Below, in pieces: positions 11,214 to 19,288 of a stretch of 28,015 nucleotides of DNA. The translations under genes and the position numbers were made by a program. The DNA is from an uncultured Gammaproteobacteria bacterium. GTDB lineage: Bacteria > Patescibacteriota > Patescibacteriia > 2-12-FULL-60-25. The notes under the pieces were generated by a model, which did no database searches, was not told where the DNA came from, and saw nothing but the letters and a program-made list of their open reading frames with translations. Positions within the stretch are counted from its first letter, which is position 1, and each line of letters opens with the position of its first letter. The stretch covers positions 1 to 28,015 of the forward strand of contig CAYGDS010000001.1 of the NCBI GenBank assembly GCA_964348595.1. Reading direction: 5' to 3'.

Positions 11214-11288
11214 GGCCCGTTCGTCTAAGGGCTAGGACATCACCCTCTCACGGTGAGAATGGGGGTTCGAATCCCCCACGGGTCACCA
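11214..11288 (+). tRNA. tRNA-Glu (anticodon CTC), CCA encoded
   Basis: Acceptor GGCCCGT/ACGGGTC, anticodon arm TCACC-CTCTCAC-GGTGA, T-arm GGGGG-TTCGAAT-CCCCC, ending ACCA. Confidence 0.97.
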
Positions 11289-11303
11289 TCGAGCTCAGCT
11301 CGA
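11289..11303. repeat. 15-bp palindrome TCGAGCT-C-AGCTCGA (copy 1 of 3)
   Basis: Perfect 7-1-7 inverted repeat starting directly after the tRNA CCA. Confidence 0.85.
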
Positions 11304-11304
11304 A

Positions 11305-11342
11305 CACGAAAAAAATCGCGCCACGACGCGATTTTTTTCGTG
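11305..11342. terminator. Strong intrinsic terminator after tRNA-Glu (potentially bidirectional)
   Basis: Perfect 16-bp stem CACGAAAAAAATCGCG / CGCGATTTTTTTCGTG with loop CCACGA. The A7 and T7 tracts lie within the arms. Confidence 0.88.
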
Positions 11343-11344
11343 TG

Positions 11345-11353
11345 TGGTATCAT
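11345..11353 (+). promoter_or_regulatory. Extended -10 element for the sensor kinase
   Basis: TG-G-TATCAT ending 20 nt upstream of ATG 11374. Confidence 0.5.
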
Positions 11354-11373
11354 GAGAGAGAAGGGACGCACGT

Positions 11374-14058
11374 ATGCAACTTAGTCGGGTTCGATTATCA
11401 ACCCAATTTTTGCTCGGCATTATAGCCGTGATGCTATTGACGACGGGAGCTTACATCGTCTTGCGTGGCAGGGATCTTGTGCGAGAAGCGAGGGCGCGAA
11501 CGGAAGAACGAGATCTCACCTATGCCCGGACACTCGCTCGTAGTATCGAGATTCACCTTGGGCACGACATCGCGGTCGTTGAGACCCTCGCGGGATCCGT
11601 GAGATCGGTCCCGTACACGACCGCGGTTCTGACACCGTACGTGGAAAACGCAGCTCTCAAGAATCCCGATTTCGCCGGTTTGGGCTTTTCAGATCTCAAT
11701 AATAAGATCATTGCCACGCTCTTACCCGATGAGACGGTAGAAGAAAAACGTCGTCCACTTGGCCTCGATATAGGCGCGCGTGCCTACGTACAGGAGGCGC
11801 TTGCAAAAAAACAAACAGCAGTATCTGACGGGCTTGTATCTCTCGTGACGGGCGAGCCGACGATTGCGGTCGCGGTGCCGGTTTTTGATGAACAGGAGAA
11901 GTTTCATGGCCTGGCCATAGGTGCAGTGAAATTGGAGGCCCTGAAGAAAATAAGTGAGGCCGTGCTCGGAAGTGAAAGCGCCCTCCCTGTTGTTATTGAT
12001 CCAAAGGGTCAGGTGGTCCTGCACAAAAATGAAACCTACGTTCGTCAGCAAAGAATCATTATAGACCTTGCACCTGCGAAACGTGTCTTAGCCGGGGAGG
12101 AAGGATTTATCGAATCCTTCACGGATATAGATGGCGTAGAGCGAAGCGCGGCGTTTGCACCCATCTTTGGACTGGGTTGGGGGGTCTGGGTCGCTCAAGA
12201 CTCGGCGCTGGCCAACCAAGTTACGTGGGAGCTGTTTCTCGCGAGCACCCTTTGGGCTCTCGCATCACTTGTCGGAATCCTCGCGATCTTTCTTCTTGTC
12301 GCACGGCATTTATTTCAGCCACTTTCTCAGCTCACCAAGGGGCTCTCCGAGGTCGTTGAGCATTACGATCTGGATGGTCGATTGGAAGTGAAAGGATTTT
12401 GGCCATCGTATGAAGTCGCGGTATTGGCGGAAACTTATAAAAATATTCTTGAGAAAATTCGTAAATCTATACGCACGATTCAGTTGATTAGCCAGGGAAA
12501 CCGCAGCCTCGTGTATAGCGAAAATGAGCAGGCGCTTCTTTCAGAAATCTGTACGTTGTTTGTTGAGGTTGGAGAGTATAAAGCAGCCTGGTTTGGATAC
12601 GTCGACGTATCCTCACGGAACAAACGTATTAAGCCTGTCGCGACCGCGGGGGTCACGCTTTCAGAACTCGAGAGTAGTTCCCTCGTGAAATTTGGTGGCC
12701 TCTTTGAGCGAACTCCCATGGCGATCGCAATACGCACGGGCAAATCCTCGGCCGTGCGTCATTTGTTAAGTCGCTCCGTCCCTCGATCGCTTCGCGAGGA
12801 TGCGGAACGTCTTGGCTTCGGATCCGTCATCGTATTTCCCGTTCTGGTACATCACGAAATGATCGGGTTGTTTGTGATTCACGCGGCGGAGGATGATGGG
12901 TTCAGCGGTACGGAAACCGAGCTGCTTCAACAACTTGTGGATGATGTGTCGTTTGGTGTGTCGAGTGCTCGTACACGAATCGACAAAGAGTTAGCGGAGC
13001 AAAAATACGAAGATCTTGTTCAAAAAGCACCAGATATTATTTTTTCCGTAACTCCCGAGGGGATCACGACAAGCCTGAACCCGGCGTTCCATGTCCTCAC
13101 GGGATGGGATATGCAAGAGTGGCTAGGAAAGCCATTCGGTGAACTCATCCATCCGGTGGACTTGACGAGTGTACAAACGCATTTACAGGAAGCACTACAA
13201 ACGCGTGTCTCTAAACCGTTTACTTTCAGGCTTCGCGCGAAGAACGGATCCTATATAAACGTAGAGTCCACTATGGTTCCGCGTATACACGGCGGAAACG
13301 TCGTTGATCTATTTGGTATTGCACGCGACGTTACAGAAAAGATGTCGCAAGCGGCGAAGAGAGGTGCATTGGAAAAATTACGCGAGCGTTTTATCCAAGT
13401 CGTCTCTCATCAGCTTCGTACTCCACTCACCTCAATCCGTTGGAACCTCGAAGCGCTCTTAACGGGTAAGATCGGCAAGCTTACTGAGGAGCAGCAGCAA
13501 TTCATTCGACTCACTTTCGATGCCGAACTCGAGGTTATCAAGCGTTTGCGTGATATCCTTCTTGTGTCGGATATTGAACAGGGACGACTTGGATTTTCGA
13601 CGGAACGAACTAAGCTCGGGCCCATGGTTCAAGCTTCATTTGAGGCATTGCGCGAGCTGTGCGCCGTACGAAATCAACACTGTGTACTTAAGATGGACAA
13701 AGCGCTGCCCGAGCTCACCATTGATGCAGATAAGGTGCGCGACTCCATTGATAAATTGCTTGAAAATGCGGCTGTATATACCCCAGAGGGAGGCCGGATT
13801 CAGGTCACAGTGAAACGTAACGTTGACTCGATACGATTCGAAGTCGTTGATACGGGCATCGGCATCCCTGCAGAACAACAATCGAATATCTTTGAGCGAT
13901 TCTATCGAGCTTCAAATGCGTTGCGTATGCACCCAGAGTCAACGGGGCTCGGACTCGGCATCGTCAAGTATTATATTGAGCAACAAGGTGGTACCGTTGG
14001 ATTTACGAGCATCGAAAACCAAGGAAGTACCTTCTGGTTCGAGCTCCCCATTAAGTAA
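11374..14058 (+). CDS. Membrane sensor histidine kinase (TM-Cache-TM-HAMP-GAF-PAS-HisKA-HATPase)
   Basis: Two TM helices flank a Cache-like region (VSLVTGEPTIAVAVPV). Then HAMP-like PLSQL, GAF-like segment, PAS (SLNPAF..LTGW...EWLGK), H-box SHQLRTPL, LLENA, DTGIGIP, IFERFYR and GLGL. Confidence 0.93.
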   Translation: MQLSRVRLSTQFLLGIIAVMLLTTGAYIVLRGRDLVREARARTEERDLTYARTLARSIEIHLGHDIAVVETLAGSVRSVPYTTAVLTPYVENAALKNPDFAGLGFSDLNNKIIATLLPDETVEEKRRPLGLDIGARAYVQEALAKKQTAVSDGLVSLVTGEPTIAVAVPVFDEQEKFHGLAIGAVKLEALKKISEAVLGSESALPVVIDPKGQVVLHKNETYVRQQRIIIDLAPAKRVLAGEEGFIESFTDIDGVERSAAFAPIFGLGWGVWVAQDSALANQVTWELFLASTLWALASLVGILAIFLLVARHLFQPLSQLTKGLSEVVEHYDLDGRLEVKGFWPSYEVAVLAETYKNILEKIRKSIRTIQLISQGNRSLVYSENEQALLSEICTLFVEVGEYKAAWFGYVDVSSRNKRIKPVATAGVTLSELESSSLVKFGGLFERTPMAIAIRTGKSSAVRHLLSRSVPRSLREDAERLGFGSVIVFPVLVHHEMIGLFVIHAAEDDGFSGTETELLQQLVDDVSFGVSSARTRIDKELAEQKYEDLVQKAPDIIFSVTPEGITTSLNPAFHVLTGWDMQEWLGKPFGELIHPVDLTSVQTHLQEALQTRVSKPFTFRLRAKNGSYINVESTMVPRIHGGNVVDLFGIARDVTEKMSQAAKRGALEKLRERFIQVVSHQLRTPLTSIRWNLEALLTGKIGKLTEEQQQFIRLTFDAELEVIKRLRDILLVSDIEQGRLGFSTERTKLGPMVQASFEALRELCAVRNQHCVLKMDKALPELTIDADKVRDSIDKLLENAAVYTPEGGRIQVTVKRNVDSIRFEVVDTGIGIPAEQQSNIFERFYRASNALRMHPESTGLGLGIVKYYIEQQGGTVGFTSIENQGSTFWFELPIK

Positions 14059-14082
14059 TTCTCCGAACCAGTACATAGGTTT

Positions 14083-14559
14083 ATGACACCAGAGCACCAG
14101 CATCACCTCCTCATTATCGAAGACGACCAGGGTCTTGCGAACTCGATGAAGATCTTGTTTTCTCGTTCGGGATTTACGGTCGACACGGCAAGCAACGCGT
14201 CCGAGTCTCGAATGCGGATTGATGAGCACCGGCCCTGTTTCATTTTTTTAGACATTTTATTACCAGGGGAGTCCGGTCTCGAGTTTCTCGAAGAACTTCG
14301 TCGTGACAAGTCGTTTAAGAACACGCCCATCTTTGTGTTAACGCAATTTCATGATGAAGCGTACCAGCAAGAGGCAAAAAGGCTTAATGTGACAGCGTAC
14401 TTTGTAAAGGCCGAGCACAGCCTGAAGGATATTATGGATCAAGTAATGAAGGCGCTTGAGAAATGTAGACGTGGGGACTGCGGGCCGTGGGAGGGTCATC
14501 AAGAGTCCGTTGCGACAGAGGAGCAGTCAATTAAAAAGAAAAAGCCCCGTTCTACGTAA
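14083..14559 (+). CDS. Stand-alone response regulator receiver with a short C-terminal tail
   Basis: IEDD, LDILLPG, LTQF and YFVK. Directly downstream of the kinase. Confidence 0.92.
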   Translation: MTPEHQHHLLIIEDDQGLANSMKILFSRSGFTVDTASNASESRMRIDEHRPCFIFLDILLPGESGLEFLEELRRDKSFKNTPIFVLTQFHDEAYQQEAKRLNVTAYFVKAEHSLKDIMDQVMKALEKCRRGDCGPWEGHQESVATEEQSIKKKKPRST

Positions 14560-14565
14560 CGAGGC
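14533..14565 (-). terminator. Intrinsic terminator for the minus-strand STAS-like pair
   Basis: The minus strand reads GCCTCGTT-ACGTAG-AACGGGGC followed by TTTTTCTTTTT. It overlaps the 3' end of the convergent receiver gene. Confidence 0.7.
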
Positions 14566-14573
14566 TGTCAGTG

Positions 14574-14975
14574 TTAGATCAGCAGCTTTTGAAGCTCGAG
14601 GGCATCCGTGATGGCATCTGCCTGCGTGGCGGCGAAGCGAAAGGTCACACCGTGCTTGAGACAGATGGTGGAGAGCGTCGTGCGGTGCATCTGAGACAGA
14701 ATGACCGCAACGACACCGGCCCCATGGTGCTTCTTGATCTCGATCGCGAGCTCAGTCAGGGGCGTACGCAGGCTTGCCCTGAGCTGTGCCTGCGAGATGT
14801 CGAGCACCCACGGGGACCGATGCGCGGCGATGTGTGGGAGTGCATGCTTCGCGGACGAGAGGAGCGCCGCGTCATCGATGACTCCCTCGAGCACGGTGAG
14901 TACACAGCCGTTCGGCAGGAGTCGTGTGGAGGGCTCGACGTATGGGACTGTTCCTCTACGTTTCCGCTCCATCAC
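14574..14975 (-). CDS. Hypothetical protein, STAS/SpoIIAA-like fold suspected
   Basis: SD GGAGGAG precedes GTG/ATG and the start overlaps the upstream stop. Alpha/beta pattern VLTVLEGVID...WVLDISQA...VVAVI...FRFAATQADAI. Confidence 0.7.
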   Translation of the reverse strand: MMERKRRGTVPYVEPSTRLLPNGCVLTVLEGVIDDAALLSSAKHALPHIAAHRSPWVLDISQAQLRASLRTPLTELAIEIKKHHGAGVVAVILSQMHRTTLSTICLKHGVTFRFAATQADAITDALELQKLLI

Positions 14976-15421
14976 CCCGTCTCCTCCCCGACGTGCACGG
15001 CGAGTTGCGCCATAGCTTCGTCGATTGTCTGGACCATCACGAACCTCGGGATGCCAGATGAAGACGACGAGATGCTGATAGAAGCGATGTGCATGCGGAT
15101 GACATCATGGGCGCAGACGATGATGACACGATGCCCGCCCCTCGCCCTGAAGTCTCGCATGATGTCGAGCAGAGGCTCCTTGATCGAAACGTCGATCTTT
15201 TCGAGCTGAGTCATGACGAGCACCCAGTCGCCGGGTGCACTCTCGAGCTCGCACATGACTTGGTAGCGCATGCGCGTCACCAGCGAGTCATTGGCGCACC
15301 CCGTCAACACGCTCACGATGAGATCGGTCGAACGACGTTCCGTCTCGACGGTGAAGGCGGCGCCAACACCAGCTTGGCTTCCTACTGCCGGCAGATTCCT
15401 ACTCCGTCTCTTTGTGGTCAC
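14972..15421 (-). CDS. Hypothetical protein, STAS/SpoIIAA-like fold suspected
   Basis: SD AAGGAG before GTG. Pattern WVLVMTQLEKID...RVIIV...FVMVQTIDEAMAQL. It has its own consensus promoter. Confidence 0.72.
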   Translation of the reverse strand: MTTKRRSRNLPAVGSQAGVGAAFTVETERRSTDLIVSVLTGCANDSLVTRMRYQVMCELESAPGDWVLVMTQLEKIDVSIKEPLLDIMRDFRARGGHRVIIVCAHDVIRMHIASISISSSSSGIPRFVMVQTIDEAMAQLAVHVGEETG

Positions 15422-15443
15422 GGACTCTCCTTGCGCGTGTGCG

Positions 15444-15458
15444 TCGAGCTGAGCTCGA
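15444..15458. repeat. 15-bp palindrome TCGAGCT-G-AGCTCGA (copy 2 of 3)
   Basis: Perfect 7-1-7 inverted repeat in the 5' leader of the STAS-like pair. Confidence 0.85.
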
Positions 15459-15480
15459 TGCGCATGAAAGGTGCGTTCGG

Positions 15481-15508
15481 ATTATACAAAAAAGCCCGTT
15501 TTTGTCAA
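15481..15508 (-). promoter_or_regulatory. Consensus sigma70 promoter for the STAS-like pair
   Basis: Minus strand: TTGACA (15508-15503), 16 nt, TATAAT (15486-15481). Confidence 0.8.
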
Positions 15509-15512
15509 CGGG
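15488..15512 (-). terminator. Probable rnhB terminator overlapping the downstream promoter
   Basis: Minus strand: CCCGTT-GACAAA-AACGGG-C-TTTTTT. Confidence 0.6.
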
Positions 15513-16128
15513 TCATGAATTCCTTGATTGGAGCGTAGCTTTTGCGATGGATAGCACAAGGCCCAAGCTTCCTTAGTGCTTTTTGGTGGAACGCGGTTCC
15601 ATAGCCCTTATGATCGGCAAAGCCATAACCAGGGAATCGGATCTCGAGCCGTCCCATCTCTTCATCGCGATGCACTTTGGCGATCACGGAAGCGGCGGCT
15701 ATCGATTTCACGAGGCGATCGCCACGGATCACGCGATGGCAGGGGATATCCAGCCCAGGGATATTGAATCCATCGGCAAGGACGGCGTGTGGTCGTACCG
15801 TGAGGCCGTTGATAGCACGTCTCGTAGCAAGAAATGTCGCCTGTCGGATGTTCAAACGATCGACTTCTTCATGCGTAGCGATGCCAACCGCCCACGCGAC
15901 GGCTTTTGCTTTGATCGATTCGATGACGCGTTCTCGTTGCATGAGTGTCAGGCTTTTGGAGTCGCGAATGAGTTTGATGCGCGAATTTAGTGGGATGATC
16001 ACGGCGGCTGCGTACACAGGGCCGGCCCATGCGCCGCATCCGGCTTCGTCGACGCCGGCGACGAGCTCGAGGCCCTGGCCGATGAATTCGCGTTCATAAG
16101 CGAAGGTGGGGATGGGGATGGCGACCAT
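15505..16128 (-). CDS. rnhB: Ribonuclease HII
   Basis: AGVDEAGCGAWAGP, IRDSK, LADG, GD...SIAAASVIAKV.RD, YGFADHKGYGT and IHRKSY. Confidence 0.96.
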   Translation of the reverse strand: MVAIPIPTFAYEREFIGQGLELVAGVDEAGCGAWAGPVYAAAVIIPLNSRIKLIRDSKSLTLMQRERVIESIKAKAVAWAVGIATHEEVDRLNIRQATFLATRRAINGLTVRPHAVLADGFNIPGLDIPCHRVIRGDRLVKSIAAASVIAKVHRDEEMGRLEIRFPGYGFADHKGYGTAFHQKALRKLGPCAIHRKSYAPIKEFMTR

Positions 16129-16200
16129 AACGCGTAACGCATAGCGTGGAGCGCCAAACGCAAAACGTCAAACGGTTTGACTTCGAGCGTTACGCGTTAT
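16126..16200. repeat. Degenerate heptamer array with nested inverted repeats (rnhB/ruvX divergent region)
   Basis: CATAACG CGTAACG CATAGCG TGGAGCG CCAAACG CAAAACG TCAAACG. Perfect 14-bp inverted repeat 16127-16140/16187-16200 and inner palindrome GTCAAAC-G-GTTTGAC (16167-16181). Confidence 0.85.
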
Positions 16201-16246
16201 TTACCCGCCTCGTTGCATGAAATGCTTCGGGCGGGCACGATATGCC
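16187..16246 (+). repeat. 60-bp structured upstream element, copy A (before ruvX)
   Basis: 56/60 identical to 19342-19401. Hairpin CCCGCC-T-CG-TT-GCAT-GAA-ATGC-TT-CG-GGCGGG. Confidence 0.92.
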
Positions 16247-16248
16247 AT

Positions 16249-16656
16249 ATGCGTGTCATAGGAATAGATCATGGTTCGGCCAGGATAGGTATCGCGATGG
16301 GGGACACGGAATCCCGCGTGGCGAGTCCCTGGGACGTGCTGAAGCCCTCGAATCAGACGGAGGCCGTGCAGCTCGTTCACGAGCTCTGTCTCGGTGAAGG
16401 CGTCGACCGAGTCGTCGTCGGTATTCCGCGACCCCTTGCAGATCGTGCGCGCGAAACCGACCAGGCGAAGACGATCCGACGCTTCATGGAAGCGCTACGC
16501 GTCGAAGGCCTGGATGTCGTTGAGGAGGACGAGTCACTCTCAACTGCGCTCGCGGCAAAACTCGCGGCGGATGCCGGATCAAAGGGCAAGCGCGATGATC
16601 TGGCGGCAACGGCTATTCTTCAAACGTACTTGGATCGCATAACGCATAGCGCATAA
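16249..16656 (+). CDS. ruvX: Holliday junction resolvase-like / pre-16S rRNA nuclease YqgF
   Basis: MRVIGIDHGSARIGIAMGD, VVVGIP, EDESLST and DDLAATAILQTYLD. Start reassigned to ATG 16249. Confidence 0.93.
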   Translation: MRVIGIDHGSARIGIAMGDTESRVASPWDVLKPSNQTEAVQLVHELCLGEGVDRVVVGIPRPLADRARETDQAKTIRRFMEALRVEGLDVVEEDESLSTALAAKLAADAGSKGKRDDLAATAILQTYLDRITHSA

Positions 16657-16777
16657 CGCATAACCCGTAACATCGACCATTAACCCATGAACCCGTTCGA
16701 CTTTATGGACTTTCATCTTTCGACTTCTGACATCTGACATCTGAGTTCTGACATCTGGGTCATGGTTATCGGTTATG
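16636..16777. repeat. Degenerate heptamer array between ruvX and recO
   Basis: CGCATAA CGCATAG CGCATAA CGCATAA CCCGTAA ... CTGACAT CTGACAT CTGAGTT CTGACAT CTGGGTC ATGGTTATCGGTTATG. Confidence 0.85.
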
Positions 16778-17401
16778 TATCTCAGAGACACCGTCTTCAT
16801 CTTAAAAAGCGAACCGTTTCGTGAGCATGATAGCCGCGTAACGATGTATGGGCGTGTCCACGGAAAAATGTCGGCCGTTGCGCGCGGAAGTCGACGCATG
16901 TCCGCGAAACACCTTGGCCATCTAGAGCCGCTCACCGTCGCCGAGGTCATGATCGCGCACGGTCAATCGTTCGATAAGCTCGCGATTGCGCGGCGCGTTA
17001 CGGTTTCATCGCCTGATCTCGCTTCTCTCGCGCTCGCTGGTGCCTTTTCTTCATTGGTAGACTCTTTGGTCGGGTTTGGCGTTCCCGAGACGGCCCTGTT
17101 CGATCTTTTATTACAAACCAGGGATGTCTTCGTCGATGGCGGTATTCCGACACCGGAGCGCGCGCGGTTTTTGTACGCGGCAGCGACACTCAAATTACTC
17201 GACATCCTCGGATACGCGCCCGTGCTCGATGATAAATTATTCAAGTTCATGCGATCCGCGTCGCTCTACGATCTCAAGCGCTTAACGGCGCCCGTTGATC
17301 AACTGTCGACAGCAAGCGCGGTTGTCGAAGATGCGCTCACGCATACGCCGTTACACCGGGCGCCCCATGGGTCAGCGACGATCGTGGCATTGCTCTCTTG
17401 A
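16775..17401 (+). CDS. recO: DNA repair protein RecO
   Basis: N-terminal OB-fold pattern ILKSEPFREHDSRVTMY....GKMSAVARGSRR..AK..GHLEP and helical KLLDILGYAP. No Zn-finger Cys visible. Confidence 0.88.
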   Translation: MYLRDTVFILKSEPFREHDSRVTMYGRVHGKMSAVARGSRRMSAKHLGHLEPLTVAEVMIAHGQSFDKLAIARRVTVSSPDLASLALAGAFSSLVDSLVGFGVPETALFDLLLQTRDVFVDGGIPTPERARFLYAAATLKLLDILGYAPVLDDKLFKFMRSASLYDLKRLTAPVDQLSTASAVVEDALTHTPLHRAPHGSATIVALLS

Positions 17402-17505
17402 GCCCACTCTTGACCGACATTGACGACCTTGCGACGGCCCGATTGAATGAGGTTGCATTGGCTCGTACACCCCCACGTCGTTCGATCGACTCATAAAGGA
17501 TGTGC

Positions 17506-18333
17506 ATGCACAACGCTTCCTACGCCCGTCGTGAATCGTGCTCGGTGACCAGACTGCCGTTCGTTAACAGGGATTTTCGCGCCGCATCGGTCTTTCCGCT
17601 GCGCGAGACGAGTCCCCAGGCACGTCGTTCAACGACGAAGCCGACGAACACCACGCACGAAGTCCCGACGGGACCTACCCCCAACCTGGATGCGGCGCCT
17701 CCCGCACCCAGCCACGTGACGGCGCTCGAGCCCGAACCGGTGCCCGAGCCCTGTGAGGGGCAGTCCTACATCGACACGCTCGCGCCGGCACGATCGTACG
17801 AGGACGCCGTGCACGGGTATCGTCCCGAACCGAAGGAGAAGCGTCGCAAGCTCACGAAGCGCGCGCCGCAACTCTCCCTCGATGAACGGATCGAGCAGCG
17901 TTCGGTCAGGATCGCGAGTCCGATCATTGGACGCTACGTTCGGGAGATTCTCGAGATCGACAGCGCGCTCGGTGCCTACCGCGATCTCGAGGTGCGCCGC
18001 ATGCTCTCGCGTGACGATGCGATGTGCGATGGGCACTTCTTGCGCCAGCGCCTGGAGCGCGGTGACATCTCGATGCGCTGGCTGCGCGATCAGGTGCGCG
18101 ATCGCCTCGTGCGTCAGATGAATGATCTGATTGCGAACGGCTCCTGGGCCGAGGAAGACTCGGCAAATGGATATCGCGTGCGCATCGTGCATGGTCGACA
18201 CCGCTGGGTGTTCCTCCTCTGCGCGCGGTATGGCAACGTCGTGACGTTCTTCAGTGCCGCTGACTATGCGCGGTCCATGAGTCATCGCCGCGCCCGCCGT
18301 GTCGGATACTTGTACCGCCGAAGATTCAGCTAG
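17506..18333 (+). CDS. Hypothetical protein (Pro/Thr-rich disordered N-half, compact C-terminal domain)
   Basis: SD AAAGGA 5 nt before ATG 17506, GC-rich third positions and a terminator immediately downstream. Confidence 0.72.
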   Translation: MHNASYARRESCSVTRLPFVNRDFRAASVFPLRETSPQARRSTTKPTNTTHEVPTGPTPNLDAAPPAPSHVTALEPEPVPEPCEGQSYIDTLAPARSYEDAVHGYRPEPKEKRRKLTKRAPQLSLDERIEQRSVRIASPIIGRYVREILEIDSALGAYRDLEVRRMLSRDDAMCDGHFLRQRLERGDISMRWLRDQVRDRLVRQMNDLIANGSWAEEDSANGYRVRIVHGRHRWVFLLCARYGNVVTFFSAADYARSMSHRRARRVGYLYRRRFS

Positions 18334-18346
18334 ATCCATCTCTCTA

Positions 18347-18374
18347 GAGCCCTGTCGCATGTCGGCGGGGTTTT
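18347..18374 (+). terminator. Intrinsic terminator after the 17506 orphan
   Basis: GCCCTGTCG-CATGT-CGGCGGGGT followed by TTT, with several G-U pairs. Confidence 0.6.
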
Positions 18375-18391
18375 GCTTGTCATCACGCTCG

Positions 18392-18540
18392 CCCATAACC
18401 CACCCCTGCCCCTCCCTTCTACGAGGGATGGGTTCTTTCGTCCCAAGTCTCCCCTCGAAGAAGGGGAGATTTAGAGGGGTTATGGTCCCAGGGGAGCGGG
18501 AGGGGTTATGGTCCAAGGGGAGCAGGAGGGGTTCTGTCCC
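18392..18540. repeat. GC-skewed REP-like cluster: two hairpins plus a 26-bp tandem repeat
   Basis: TCCCT/AGGGA hairpin (18413-18428), AGTCTCCCCT-CGAAGA-AGGGGAGATT (18446-18471) and GAGGGGTTATGGTCCMAGGGGAGCRG x2 (18474-18525) plus a partial third copy. Confidence 0.8.
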
Positions 18541-18541
18541 A

Positions 18542-18570
18542 TTGACATTTAACAAATTTTATGCCATATT
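18542..18570 (+). promoter_or_regulatory. sigma70 promoter for the 18617 orphan
   Basis: TTGACA (18542-18547), 17 nt, CATATT with extended TG-C. Confidence 0.65.
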
Positions 18571-18579
18571 CCTCGTACA

Positions 18580-18594
18580 TCGAGCTTAGCTCGA
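18580..18594. repeat. 15-bp palindrome TCGAGCT-T-AGCTCGA (copy 3 of 3)
   Basis: Perfect 7-1-7 inverted repeat just downstream of the predicted transcription start. Confidence 0.85.
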
Positions 18595-18616: not shown

Positions 18617-19288
18617 ATGGCGTGGTGGATGTACGTTCTTGCAGGACTCGGGTATGTCCTCGTGGGCGACACCATCGCCCGGCTCAAGCTCAAGGTTCTC
18701 AAGAACGAGATCACCAATCCCGTGATCAGATACTTCTGCTTTCCGCTGAGCATGGCATTCTCTTCCAGCGCCATAGTCGACGGCAAAATACAGGCTCATC
18801 CGTCGAGGGATGGTTCTGAGAAGGACCCCGAGCATGGTGCGCTGGCCTGGGTATTTAATCAGCTGCTCATCCCGCACTCCCACACGGAGCACAACCCGAC
18901 TCGACTCATGGTCAACGAAGATAGTGCGCGAAAGTACATCATGCTTTCCTGGCTCCACTGGCCCCTGCATGTCGTGTGGCTCGCGCTAGCAAGCCTCTTC
19001 GCAACGCCCATAGCGATCGACAAGATCCTCCAGGGCCTACACTGGCTCATCGGCAAAGGGTTCTCGGGCGTGTACGACCTACTCGGCAGGCTTTGGACCA
19101 AGAAGCCGGCGAAGGTGCGGGTCGACGAGAAAGTCGTCGAGGAGGCCGAGAGTCATGAAGCCAAGGTCCGTCGCGAGATGGATGAGGCAAGAGACAAGCT
19201 CGCCGAGCTCAAGGGAGAGCTCGAGGAAATCGAGAAGAAGAAGGGGCCCTACGGCAGGGGCAACGCGGAACAACAGCTGAAGAACTGA
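18617..19288 (+). CDS. Hypothetical membrane protein with C-terminal coiled coil
   Basis: SD GGAGG 5 nt upstream. Hydrophobic segments near the N-terminus and residues ~107-145, then a charged heptad-like tail (EARDKLAELKGELEEIEKK). Confidence 0.82.
   Translation: MAWWMYVLAGLGYVLVGDTIARLKLKVLKNEITNPVIRYFCFPLSMAFSSSAIVDGKIQAHPSRDGSEKDPEHGALAWVFNQLLIPHSHTEHNPTRLMVNEDSARKYIMLSWLHWPLHVVWLALASLFATPIAIDKILQGLHWLIGKGFSGVYDLLGRLWTKKPAKVRVDEKVVEEAESHEAKVRREMDEARDKLAELKGELEEIEKKKGPYGRGNAEQQLKN

Follow-up and report, generated by a model that had tools for sequence, protein, structure and literature searches.

A short perfect palindrome dispersed through a Patescibacteria genome is probably the cognate hairpin repeat of a small Ssn-like GIY-YIG nuclease

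We have analysed a stretch of 28,015 nucleotides (positions 1 to 28,015 of contig CAYGDS010000001.1, assembly GCA_964348595.1; hereafter the window) from a metagenome-assembled genome (MAG) of Candidatus Uhrbacteria, in which the same 15-bp palindrome, TCGAGCT-N-AGCTCGA, occurs three times. The three copies are probably solo members of a dispersed hairpin repeat, R|YCGAGCT-N-AGCTCGR|Y in family notation, that is cognate to a GIY-YIG nuclease of about 90 amino acids. This nuclease would be of the same kind as SsnA of Neisseria meningitidis, a 94-amino-acid single-domain GIY-YIG protein (cd10448) that binds the NTS/dRS3 hairpin repeat only in single-stranded DNA, cuts just upstream of it and does not act on double-stranded DNA or RNA (Chenal et al., Nat Commun 2025, PMC11893778). 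Across genera, the palindrome is physically linked to one clade of such nucleases, and the type of hairpin dispersed in a genome broadly matches the type found in its nuclease cassettes. By analogy with SsnA, the nuclease of the genome studied here (P0001) would bind and cleave the hairpin, and do so in single strands only.

An exact pattern search of the whole window located the palindrome at 11289-11303, 15444-15458 and 18580-18594, where the initial annotation had placed three perfect 7-1-7 dyads; none of 100 dinucleotide-preserving shuffles (0/100) contained a match, and allowing two mismatches did not bring up a fourth copy in the window. The centre base is C in copy 1 and T in copy 3; in copy 2 it is G on the plus strand and hence C when read in the direction of the minus-strand gene downstream. 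The MAG as a whole (G000; 1.136 Mb in 211 contigs, 56.9% G+C, 92.9% complete), whose asnS gene groups it with MAGs of Candidatus Uhrbacteria and other Patescibacteria, contains 39 exact copies, which makes this by far its commonest 7-1-7 palindrome, and the symmetric variants CCGAGCT-N-AGCTCGG, CGAAGCT-N-AGCTTCG and TCAAGCT-N-AGCTTGA (8, 3 and 1 copies, respectively). The exact copies and the eight of the first variant together form the 47-copy set used below. A genome-wide count had been proposed at the outset; it amounts to 39-47 copies rather than hundreds, with a placement that favours gene ends and not promoters.

The family obeys strict sequence rules. AGCT-N-AGCT cores number 64 in the genome, and 51 of them are extended by at least three further paired bases, the other 13 being mostly D-arms of tRNAs. 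Besides the 39 perfect copies, the variant spectrum comprises seven with one mismatch, nine that are doubly changed yet perfectly symmetric and 14 asymmetric doubles, the last a number near the eight found in a reversed-genome control. Of 94 half-sites, 92 have a purine at position -1 and 93 a base other than A at position -3, regardless of whether the flanks pair. The centre base has no strand preference (16 G and 15 C on the plus strand), and no bias of its orientation relative to the direction of transcription was found. The half-site heptamer has no unusual frequency: it was counted 298 and 301 times, and several other heptamers are commoner. We also looked for the 13-mer CGAGCT-N-AGCTCG in 127 genomes of this GTDB family; 69 of them, from 22 of 33 genera, have it, with 1-47 copies each, as against 0-2 in the reversed control.

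The gene for P0001 is an open reading frame (ORF) of 93 codons on the minus strand of another contig (G000:C53:933-1211), and eight palindromes of the AGCT-core family are found within 650 bp around it, three upstream and five downstream. Its product is a bare GIY-YIG domain (Pfam PF01541, 1.2e-14, residues 1-70), modelled by AlphaFold (AF2) with a predicted local distance difference test score (pLDDT) of 94.4; the nearest solved folds are UPF0213 protein BH0048, Slx1 and I-TevI. The catalytic residues Y5, Y16, R26, H30, E50, R61 and E62 do not vary among 25 relatives. Read in the direction of the gene, the locus starts with tRNA-Leu(TAG), whose CCA end is directly adjoined by the first palindrome, CCGAGCT-C-AGCTCGG. 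CGAAGCT-T-AGCTTCG comes 20 nt later and TCGAGCT-T-AGCTCGA after another 36 nt, followed by a terminator, a promoter, the GIY-YIG gene and two more direct copies of the composite hairpin unit. Five paralogues of P0001 (36-44% identity) are encoded elsewhere in the genome without these palindromes. A second GIY-YIG paralogue, C34:1676-1888 on the minus strand (G000:C34:1585-1924, locus L163), has inverted GTCATYCCCGCGCAGGCGGGRATCCAGG on both sides. About seven canonical NTS-like sites of this type in the genome conform to the published pattern of the 'Ssn-related motif' (SRM), so this Patescibacteria genome contains a textbook Ssn pair. P0001 is closer to this NTS-flanked paralogue (39% identity, E = 9e-11) than to the UPF0213 structures (E = 8e-5).

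We searched the 127 family genomes with the P0001 protein and fetched 30 loci, among which 11 clade-A orthologues (50-62% identity) represent at least eight genera. Every one of the 11 genes is situated 150-430 bp downstream of a same-strand tRNA, which is tRNA-Glu in eight cases and tRNA-Leu, -Arg or -His in the remainder. The layout is the same throughout: YCGAGCT-N-AGCTCGR begins at CCA+1 and SGAAGCT-N-AGCTTCS follows 14-20 nt later, with repeats upstream of the gene only in the ten clade-A genomes other than G000. In the same place, the six orthologues of sister clade B (six genomes) have TCGCGTT-N-AACGCGA and then GCGACGTT-N-AACGTCGC, a third clade (C) is associated with the hairpin TGCACC-N4-GGTGCA and a fourth (D) with CGTAAAA…TTTTACG. 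In a maximum-likelihood tree, A forms one branch (86/85) and B one clade (94/65). Mapped on this nuclease tree, the hairpin type changes 8 times vs 21.3 times in shuffles, and not one of 200 shuffles (0/200) gave so low a number.

Copies that are dispersed and unlinked to the gene are stronger evidence for the pairing of nuclease and hairpin than these tree labels. Each of the six B-cassette genomes contains 4-35 copies of the B 13-mer, whereas the eleven A-cassette genomes stay at 0-3, which is background. For A-type 13-mers, the median is 8 copies in A-cassette genomes and 0.5 in the 116 others (P = 8e-6, with no correction for kinship). Hairpin units were also found with no gene: three-hairpin units adjoin the CCA of tRNA-Ile and tRNA-Lys in G004, and in G093 and G096 they fill the spacer from tRNA-Gly to tRNA-Thr. 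Across the phylum, 130 of 301 sampled Patescibacteria genomes encode homologues of P0001; a same-strand tRNA is located at most 431 bp upstream in 14 of the best 29 of these loci, several of them with a hairpin at CCA+1. Altogether, the exact CCA junction was observed at at least eight tRNA species.

The site of copy 1 deserves special attention. Copy 1 (TCGAGCT-C-AGCTCGA, 11289..11303) is a solo palindrome exactly between the CCA of tRNA-Glu(CTC) (11214..11288, plus strand, predicted by ARAGORN) and the terminator of that tRNA; it begins at CCA+1, as the initial annotation had noted. The terminator-like element (11304..11344), an A-tract, hairpin and T-tract that reads in both directions, was recognised by inspection and by comparison with relatives; a simple terminator scan did not list it. 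The Mur ligase gene upstream of the tRNA is syntenic across the family, and the tRNA 3' flanks were compared in 20 relatives. Seven genomes (G020, G023, G014, G013, G019, G006 and G044) are empty at this site, with the terminator that corresponds to 11304..11344 directly after the CCA. Four others (G118, G063, G045 and G127) hold an A cassette and four more (G111, G107, G123 and G055) a B cassette; the solo state is that of the present genome. This is the commonest cassette site of the family. On C53 the cassette lies inside direct repeats of the hairpin unit, so that recombination between units would leave gene-less arrays and, finally, a solo hairpin. Copy 1 is either a remnant of a cassette, a landing pad for one or an independent insertion.

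Genome-wide placement was assessed against a crude codon-usage gene call covering 82% of the MAG. The intergenic share is 33/47 copies vs about 18% non-coding DNA (P = 4e-15), and most 'coding' copies fall in the first bases of over-extended ORFs. For about 23 of some 40 intergenic copies, a gene or a tRNA CCA ends at most 34 bp upstream, in several cases with the stop codon immediately before the palindrome; only one copy is in a divergent (promoter-only) spacer. About ten copies top a longer terminator hairpin, CCCCCG-[palindrome]-(T)CGGGGG-Tn. Called coding sequences of the window contain no full copy, in agreement with the first description, and a few in-frame copies exist inside coding sequence elsewhere in the genome, e.g., two in rplJ. 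This is the distribution of tolerated insertions, not of an operator. The two rplJ palindromes (G000:C31:8615-8674, locus L113) are 45 bp apart, each encodes ELSST, and they lie in the Ala/Pro/Glu-rich linker at the C terminus of ribosomal protein L10 (250 amino acids; Pfam Ribosomal_L10, residues 38-132).

Further signs of insertion came from two genomes of one genus. In two orthologous 3' untranslated regions (UTRs), a palindrome stands between the stop codon and the terminator in G066 and is missing in G065; two further palindromes are shared by this pair at orthologous places. The exact inserted bases are not definable between the two genomes because their spacers are too diverged (70-86% identity of the flanking genes). 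Four-bp direct repeats flank 5/47 copies in G000, copy 2 included, vs 0.58 expected (P < 0.001). These patterns suggest that palindrome copies arise by insertion.

Copy 2 (15444..15458) is located in the 5' leader of a minus-strand gene pair (15421-14972 and 14975-14574) and is bracketed by the direct repeat TGCG (15440-15443 and 15459-15462). It starts 23 nt after the -10 box of a sigma-70-type promoter on the minus strand (15481..15508; consensus TTGACA-16-TATAAT, 12/12), consistent with the distance of about 20 nt first given. This promoter (15508-15481) overlaps the terminator (15512-15495) of rnhB, a gene identified by Pfam RNase_HII. The label 'STAS-like' previously attached to the pair was not confirmed, as neither gene matches Pfam. 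Copy 3 (18580..18594, centre T) was correctly described as lying right after a predicted start: it follows by 10 nt the -10 box of a promoter-like site on the plus strand (18542..18570; TTGACA-17-CATATT, 10/12, with TG before the -10 box) and, in the transcript predicted for the orphan gene 18617-19288, spans positions of about +3 to +17. All three window copies fold as DNA hairpins of 6 bp with 3-nt loops (-5.6 to -8.7 kcal/mol; for copy 1, -5.6 kcal/mol, z -3.4). The T run by which an intrinsic terminator is recognised does not follow the palindrome at any of them.

Two other observations were made at these sites. Tandem units of about 22-28 bp (GGGGAGCGGGAGGGGTTATGGTCC-like) at 18450-18540 make up most of the 246-bp spacer upstream of the copy 3 promoter and seem unrelated to the palindrome. 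Logan contigs from four public DNA runs of one study (about 6x) tend to stop at or beside palindromes: one ends at 11288, others end at 15429-15435, restarting at 15425, 15463 or 18572. The hairpins probably contribute to the fragmentation of such assemblies. These contigs revealed no insertion/deletion variant, and no RNA run is listed as containing the stretch.

We propose the following explanation for the spread of the family. The cassette starts at CCA+1 of a tRNA and comprises palindrome 1, a spacer of 14-20 nt, palindrome 2 (SGAAGCT-N-AGCTTCS), about 40 nt, palindrome 3, a terminator, a promoter and the GIY-YIG gene. During replication, transcription or transformation, the hairpin may be extruded in single-stranded DNA, where the nuclease would bind it and cut the adjacent DNA. 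The units would spread to, or survive in, the few places that a compact genome tolerates, namely the gap between stop codon and terminator, terminator tops, leaders, tRNA trailers and in-frame protein linkers, in which 15 bp equal five codons. Copy 2 would then have inserted into the leader of the 15421/14975 pair and duplicated 4 bp there, and copy 3 would have entered the 18617 orphan at a site near +3 of its predicted transcript. Effects of the palindromes on neighbouring genes, as a 5' stem or as a roadblock, would be secondary or incidental.

A number of observations weigh against this explanation. Linkage is an association, and a gene is inherited together with the hairpins next to it; for the same reason, the agreement between hairpin type and nuclease tree is weak evidence if taken alone. 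At least five copies of the 13-mer are present in 22 family genomes that have no clade-A gene among the 30 loci fetched; in G084, G093 and G096 there is no GIY-YIG gene near any palindrome, and some B-cassette genomes also carry 7-10 A-type copies. P0001 belongs to a tree clade separate from that of the NTS-flanked paralogue. The palindrome differs from NTS in being fully symmetric in both its sequence and its flanks (R at -1, Y at +1), whereas NTS is oriented and is cut on one strand, and the SRM pattern HGTCWY..RNCYNB is matched by 0/47 palindromes within +/-15 nt. GIY-YIG enzymes can cut DNA but are not known to join it, so that their known chemistry does not account for the multiplication of copies. 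The 4-bp duplication accompanies only 5/47 copies and, being absent from 32/47, is not a fixed feature. Finally, copies 2 and 3 sit just where an operator or a 5' stabilising stem would.

The most serious alternative is that the palindrome acts at the RNA level, as a stem protecting transcript ends or as a processing signal in tRNA trailers and at mRNA ends, and is maintained by selection for this function, with the GIY-YIG gene merely sharing the niche beside tRNAs. The bias towards 3' UTRs, terminator tops and sites right after CCA or stop codons fits such a role, and so do the location of copies 2 and 3 at the very 5' end of predicted transcripts and the symmetric double variants, which keep the stem; REP (repetitive extragenic palindrome) elements of E. 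coli stabilise upstream mRNA. A stability stem, however, needs no fixed sequence, whereas 14 specified bases are identical here across 22 of 33 genera while flanking stems vary. The flank rule (purine at -1, pyrimidine at +1) applies whether or not the bases pair, and the centre base, with its 16 G and 15 C, has no strand preference. A stable stem set against the CCA would also hinder exonucleolytic trimming of the tRNA 3' end. Moreover, the hairpin type switches together with the nuclease clade, copies exist in frame within rplJ, and SsnA is inactive on RNA (PMC11893778). On balance, we consider the RNA-level explanation unlikely.

A still smaller probability attaches to the operator of a dimeric repressor, the shared regulon of sensor kinase, 'STAS-like' pair and membrane orphan that the initial annotation had favoured. 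The 7-1-7 geometry with symmetric flanks is what such a site would look like, and at copies 2 and 3 the palindrome overlaps the stretch from +1 to +30 behind a good promoter. Copy 1, on the other hand, is between a tRNA and its terminator and not in the kinase promoter. Genome-wide, most of the 39-47 copies follow gene ends, with a single one in a divergent spacer, and about ten are buried in terminator stems; others form tandem arrays or are inside rplJ. A regulon would have a graded spectrum of sites, not 39 perfect copies against seven with one mismatch, and genera whose gene sets are otherwise alike differ in copy number, from 0 to 47. The regulon was thus not borne out, and this reading is very improbable.

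The other suggestion made at the outset, a lineage-specific REP family, holds in part: the palindrome is a dispersed, REP-like repeat, but the enzyme linked to it is a small GIY-YIG protein and not a REP-associated tyrosine transposase (RAYT) of the Y1 HUH type. A classical REP or REPIN (paired REP) system, mobilised by a RAYT that is missing from the incomplete assembly, would account for dispersed intergenic palindromes at 3' ends and for mosaics of two or three hairpin types with spacers, similar to bacterial interspersed mosaic elements (BIMEs). The search for such a transposase gave no Y1_Tnp (PF01797) match in the 92.9%-complete genome. Y1 genes are present in 43 of the 127 family genomes, and genomes with and without them do not differ in their number of palindromes (medians 1 vs 1, P = 0.35): the palindrome-richest genomes (G000, G118, G045, G084 and G096) have no Y1 gene, and the Y1-rich G007, G056 and G132 have no palindromes. 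The repeat also lacks a GTAG/CGTC head, and the gene that it flanks encodes a GIY-YIG protein; we regard this possibility as remote. A TnpB/IS605 partner was likewise rejected, with no PF07282 match in the genome.

Equally improbable is some other DNA-level recognition site, be it a DNA-uptake signal, a site for a nucleoid or segregation protein or a restriction-modification target: Patescibacteria have competence-type uptake genes, the sequence is short and exactly conserved, and its pairs form terminators as do the DNA uptake sequences (DUS) and uptake signal sequences (USS) of Neisseria and Haemophilus, but it occurs only once per 24-29 kb, its half-site alone is not over-represented, its strong exclusion from genes is unlike parS, Noc-binding sites (NBS) or DUS, parS is separately present in five copies, and outside the palindrome family GCTNAGC and AGCT occur neither more nor less often than expected. 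An uptake signal was rejected on the grounds of half-site frequency and density, and the restriction-site idea was dropped because the core sites, TCGA among them, have an unremarkable frequency outside the family.

The genome contains further hairpins and arrangements of the repeat. Palindrome doublets with a similar 6-nt spacer (CTGCGG, CTGGAA or CTGCCG) were found at C54:5853-5888, C50:1077-1112 and C80:4547-4582, which suggests a 36-bp two-hairpin unit copied as a block. The type D hairpin, CGTAAAA-hairpin-TTTTACG, starts at CCA+1 behind nine of 33 tRNAs (contigs C7, C13, C19, C54, C105, C108 and C209). Behind Ala-GGC, Val-TAC, Val-CAC and Ile-GAT it is followed by a nearly identical shared tail, GTCGCGTGATGAGGAGCNAAGCGA, and in other genomes it precedes another GIY-YIG clade. 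Type C cassettes (L141, L142, L144 and L152, in G119, G120, G133 and G058) have TGGCGGAGCC after the TGCACC-N4-GGTGCA hairpin. This is the reverse complement of a tRNA 3' end (GGCTCCGCCA), so the cassette may include an inverted piece of a tRNA end. Two other repeated hairpin families, CCTCCTC-N5-GAGGAGG (11 copies) and TTCCCGC-N4-GCGGGAA (5 copies), are also present, and the five parS copies follow the consensus TGTTTCACGTGAAACA.

Going beyond the cognate pair, the data can be read as a whole system, free of an integrase and either selfish or domesticated, that homes to exact tRNA 3' ends and seeds 15-bp hairpins across the genome, in some cases duplicating 4 bp of the target, and whose sister clades have co-evolved hairpin specificities: GAGCT-N-AGCTC for A, CGTT-N-AACG for B, and those of C and D. 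We put this joint proposal forward tentatively, at somewhat short of an even chance. If true, Patescibacteria would offer a naturally occurring set of nucleases that cut single-stranded DNA in a sequence-specific way, together with a targeting rule, the CCA end of tRNAs, that no described mobile element uses in this way. If the pairing itself holds, the one-year-old Ssn concept gains a perfectly symmetric recognition element, sister nucleases with switched hairpins become candidate new specificities for single-strand DNA tools, and precise anchoring at tRNA CCA ends extends across the candidate phyla radiation. For the annotation of compact genomes, identical dyads before unrelated genes would be repeat insertions rather than regulons, and some terminators, leaders and even protein linkers would contain palindrome insertions. 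In the literature library that we searched, no paper connects GIY-YIG genes to hairpins at tRNA ends, to REPs or to repeats of Patescibacteria; the Ssn paper alone came close.

Among known systems, free-standing GIY-YIG homing endonucleases make up the Seg family of T-even phages, e.g., SegB in the tRNA cluster of T4. The likeness consists in a small selfish GIY-YIG gene among or behind tRNAs, polymorphic for presence at an orthologous site. Seg proteins, however, have a DNA-binding domain and no dispersed hairpins, whereas here a bare catalytic domain goes with a conspicuous repeat. Rickettsia palindromic elements (RPEs) are palindromic repeats that occur in frame inside protein genes and recall the ELSST copies in rplJ; they are 100-150 bp long and have no known linked nuclease, and in-frame copies are exceptional in the present family. 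REP, BIME and REPIN-RAYT systems resemble it in several respects: their extragenic palindromes are short and found at gene 3' ends, different types of hairpin form mosaics, the enzyme is encoded by a single-copy gene that lies between its own repeats, and expansion is specific to lineages. They differ in the enzyme, which is HUH/Y1 there and here a GIY-YIG protein without known strand-transfer chemistry, and in the element, which is here a perfect 15 bp, anchored at tRNA ends and with no GTAG/CGTC head, instead of an imperfect 20-40 bp.

The closest parallel is Ssn. NTS copies flank ssnA and are also dispersed, mostly between genes, and Ssn homologues, which number thousands, have repeats of their own (PMC11893778). 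In the Patescibacteria lineage studied here, the cassette starts exactly at the tRNA CCA, and tRNA is never mentioned in PMC11893778. The shared traits are a GIY-YIG-only protein of about 93 amino acids, a gene flanked by a hairpin repeat, dispersal of this repeat in tens of copies that are almost always intergenic and often clustered, and the pairing of different nuclease lineages with different hairpins.

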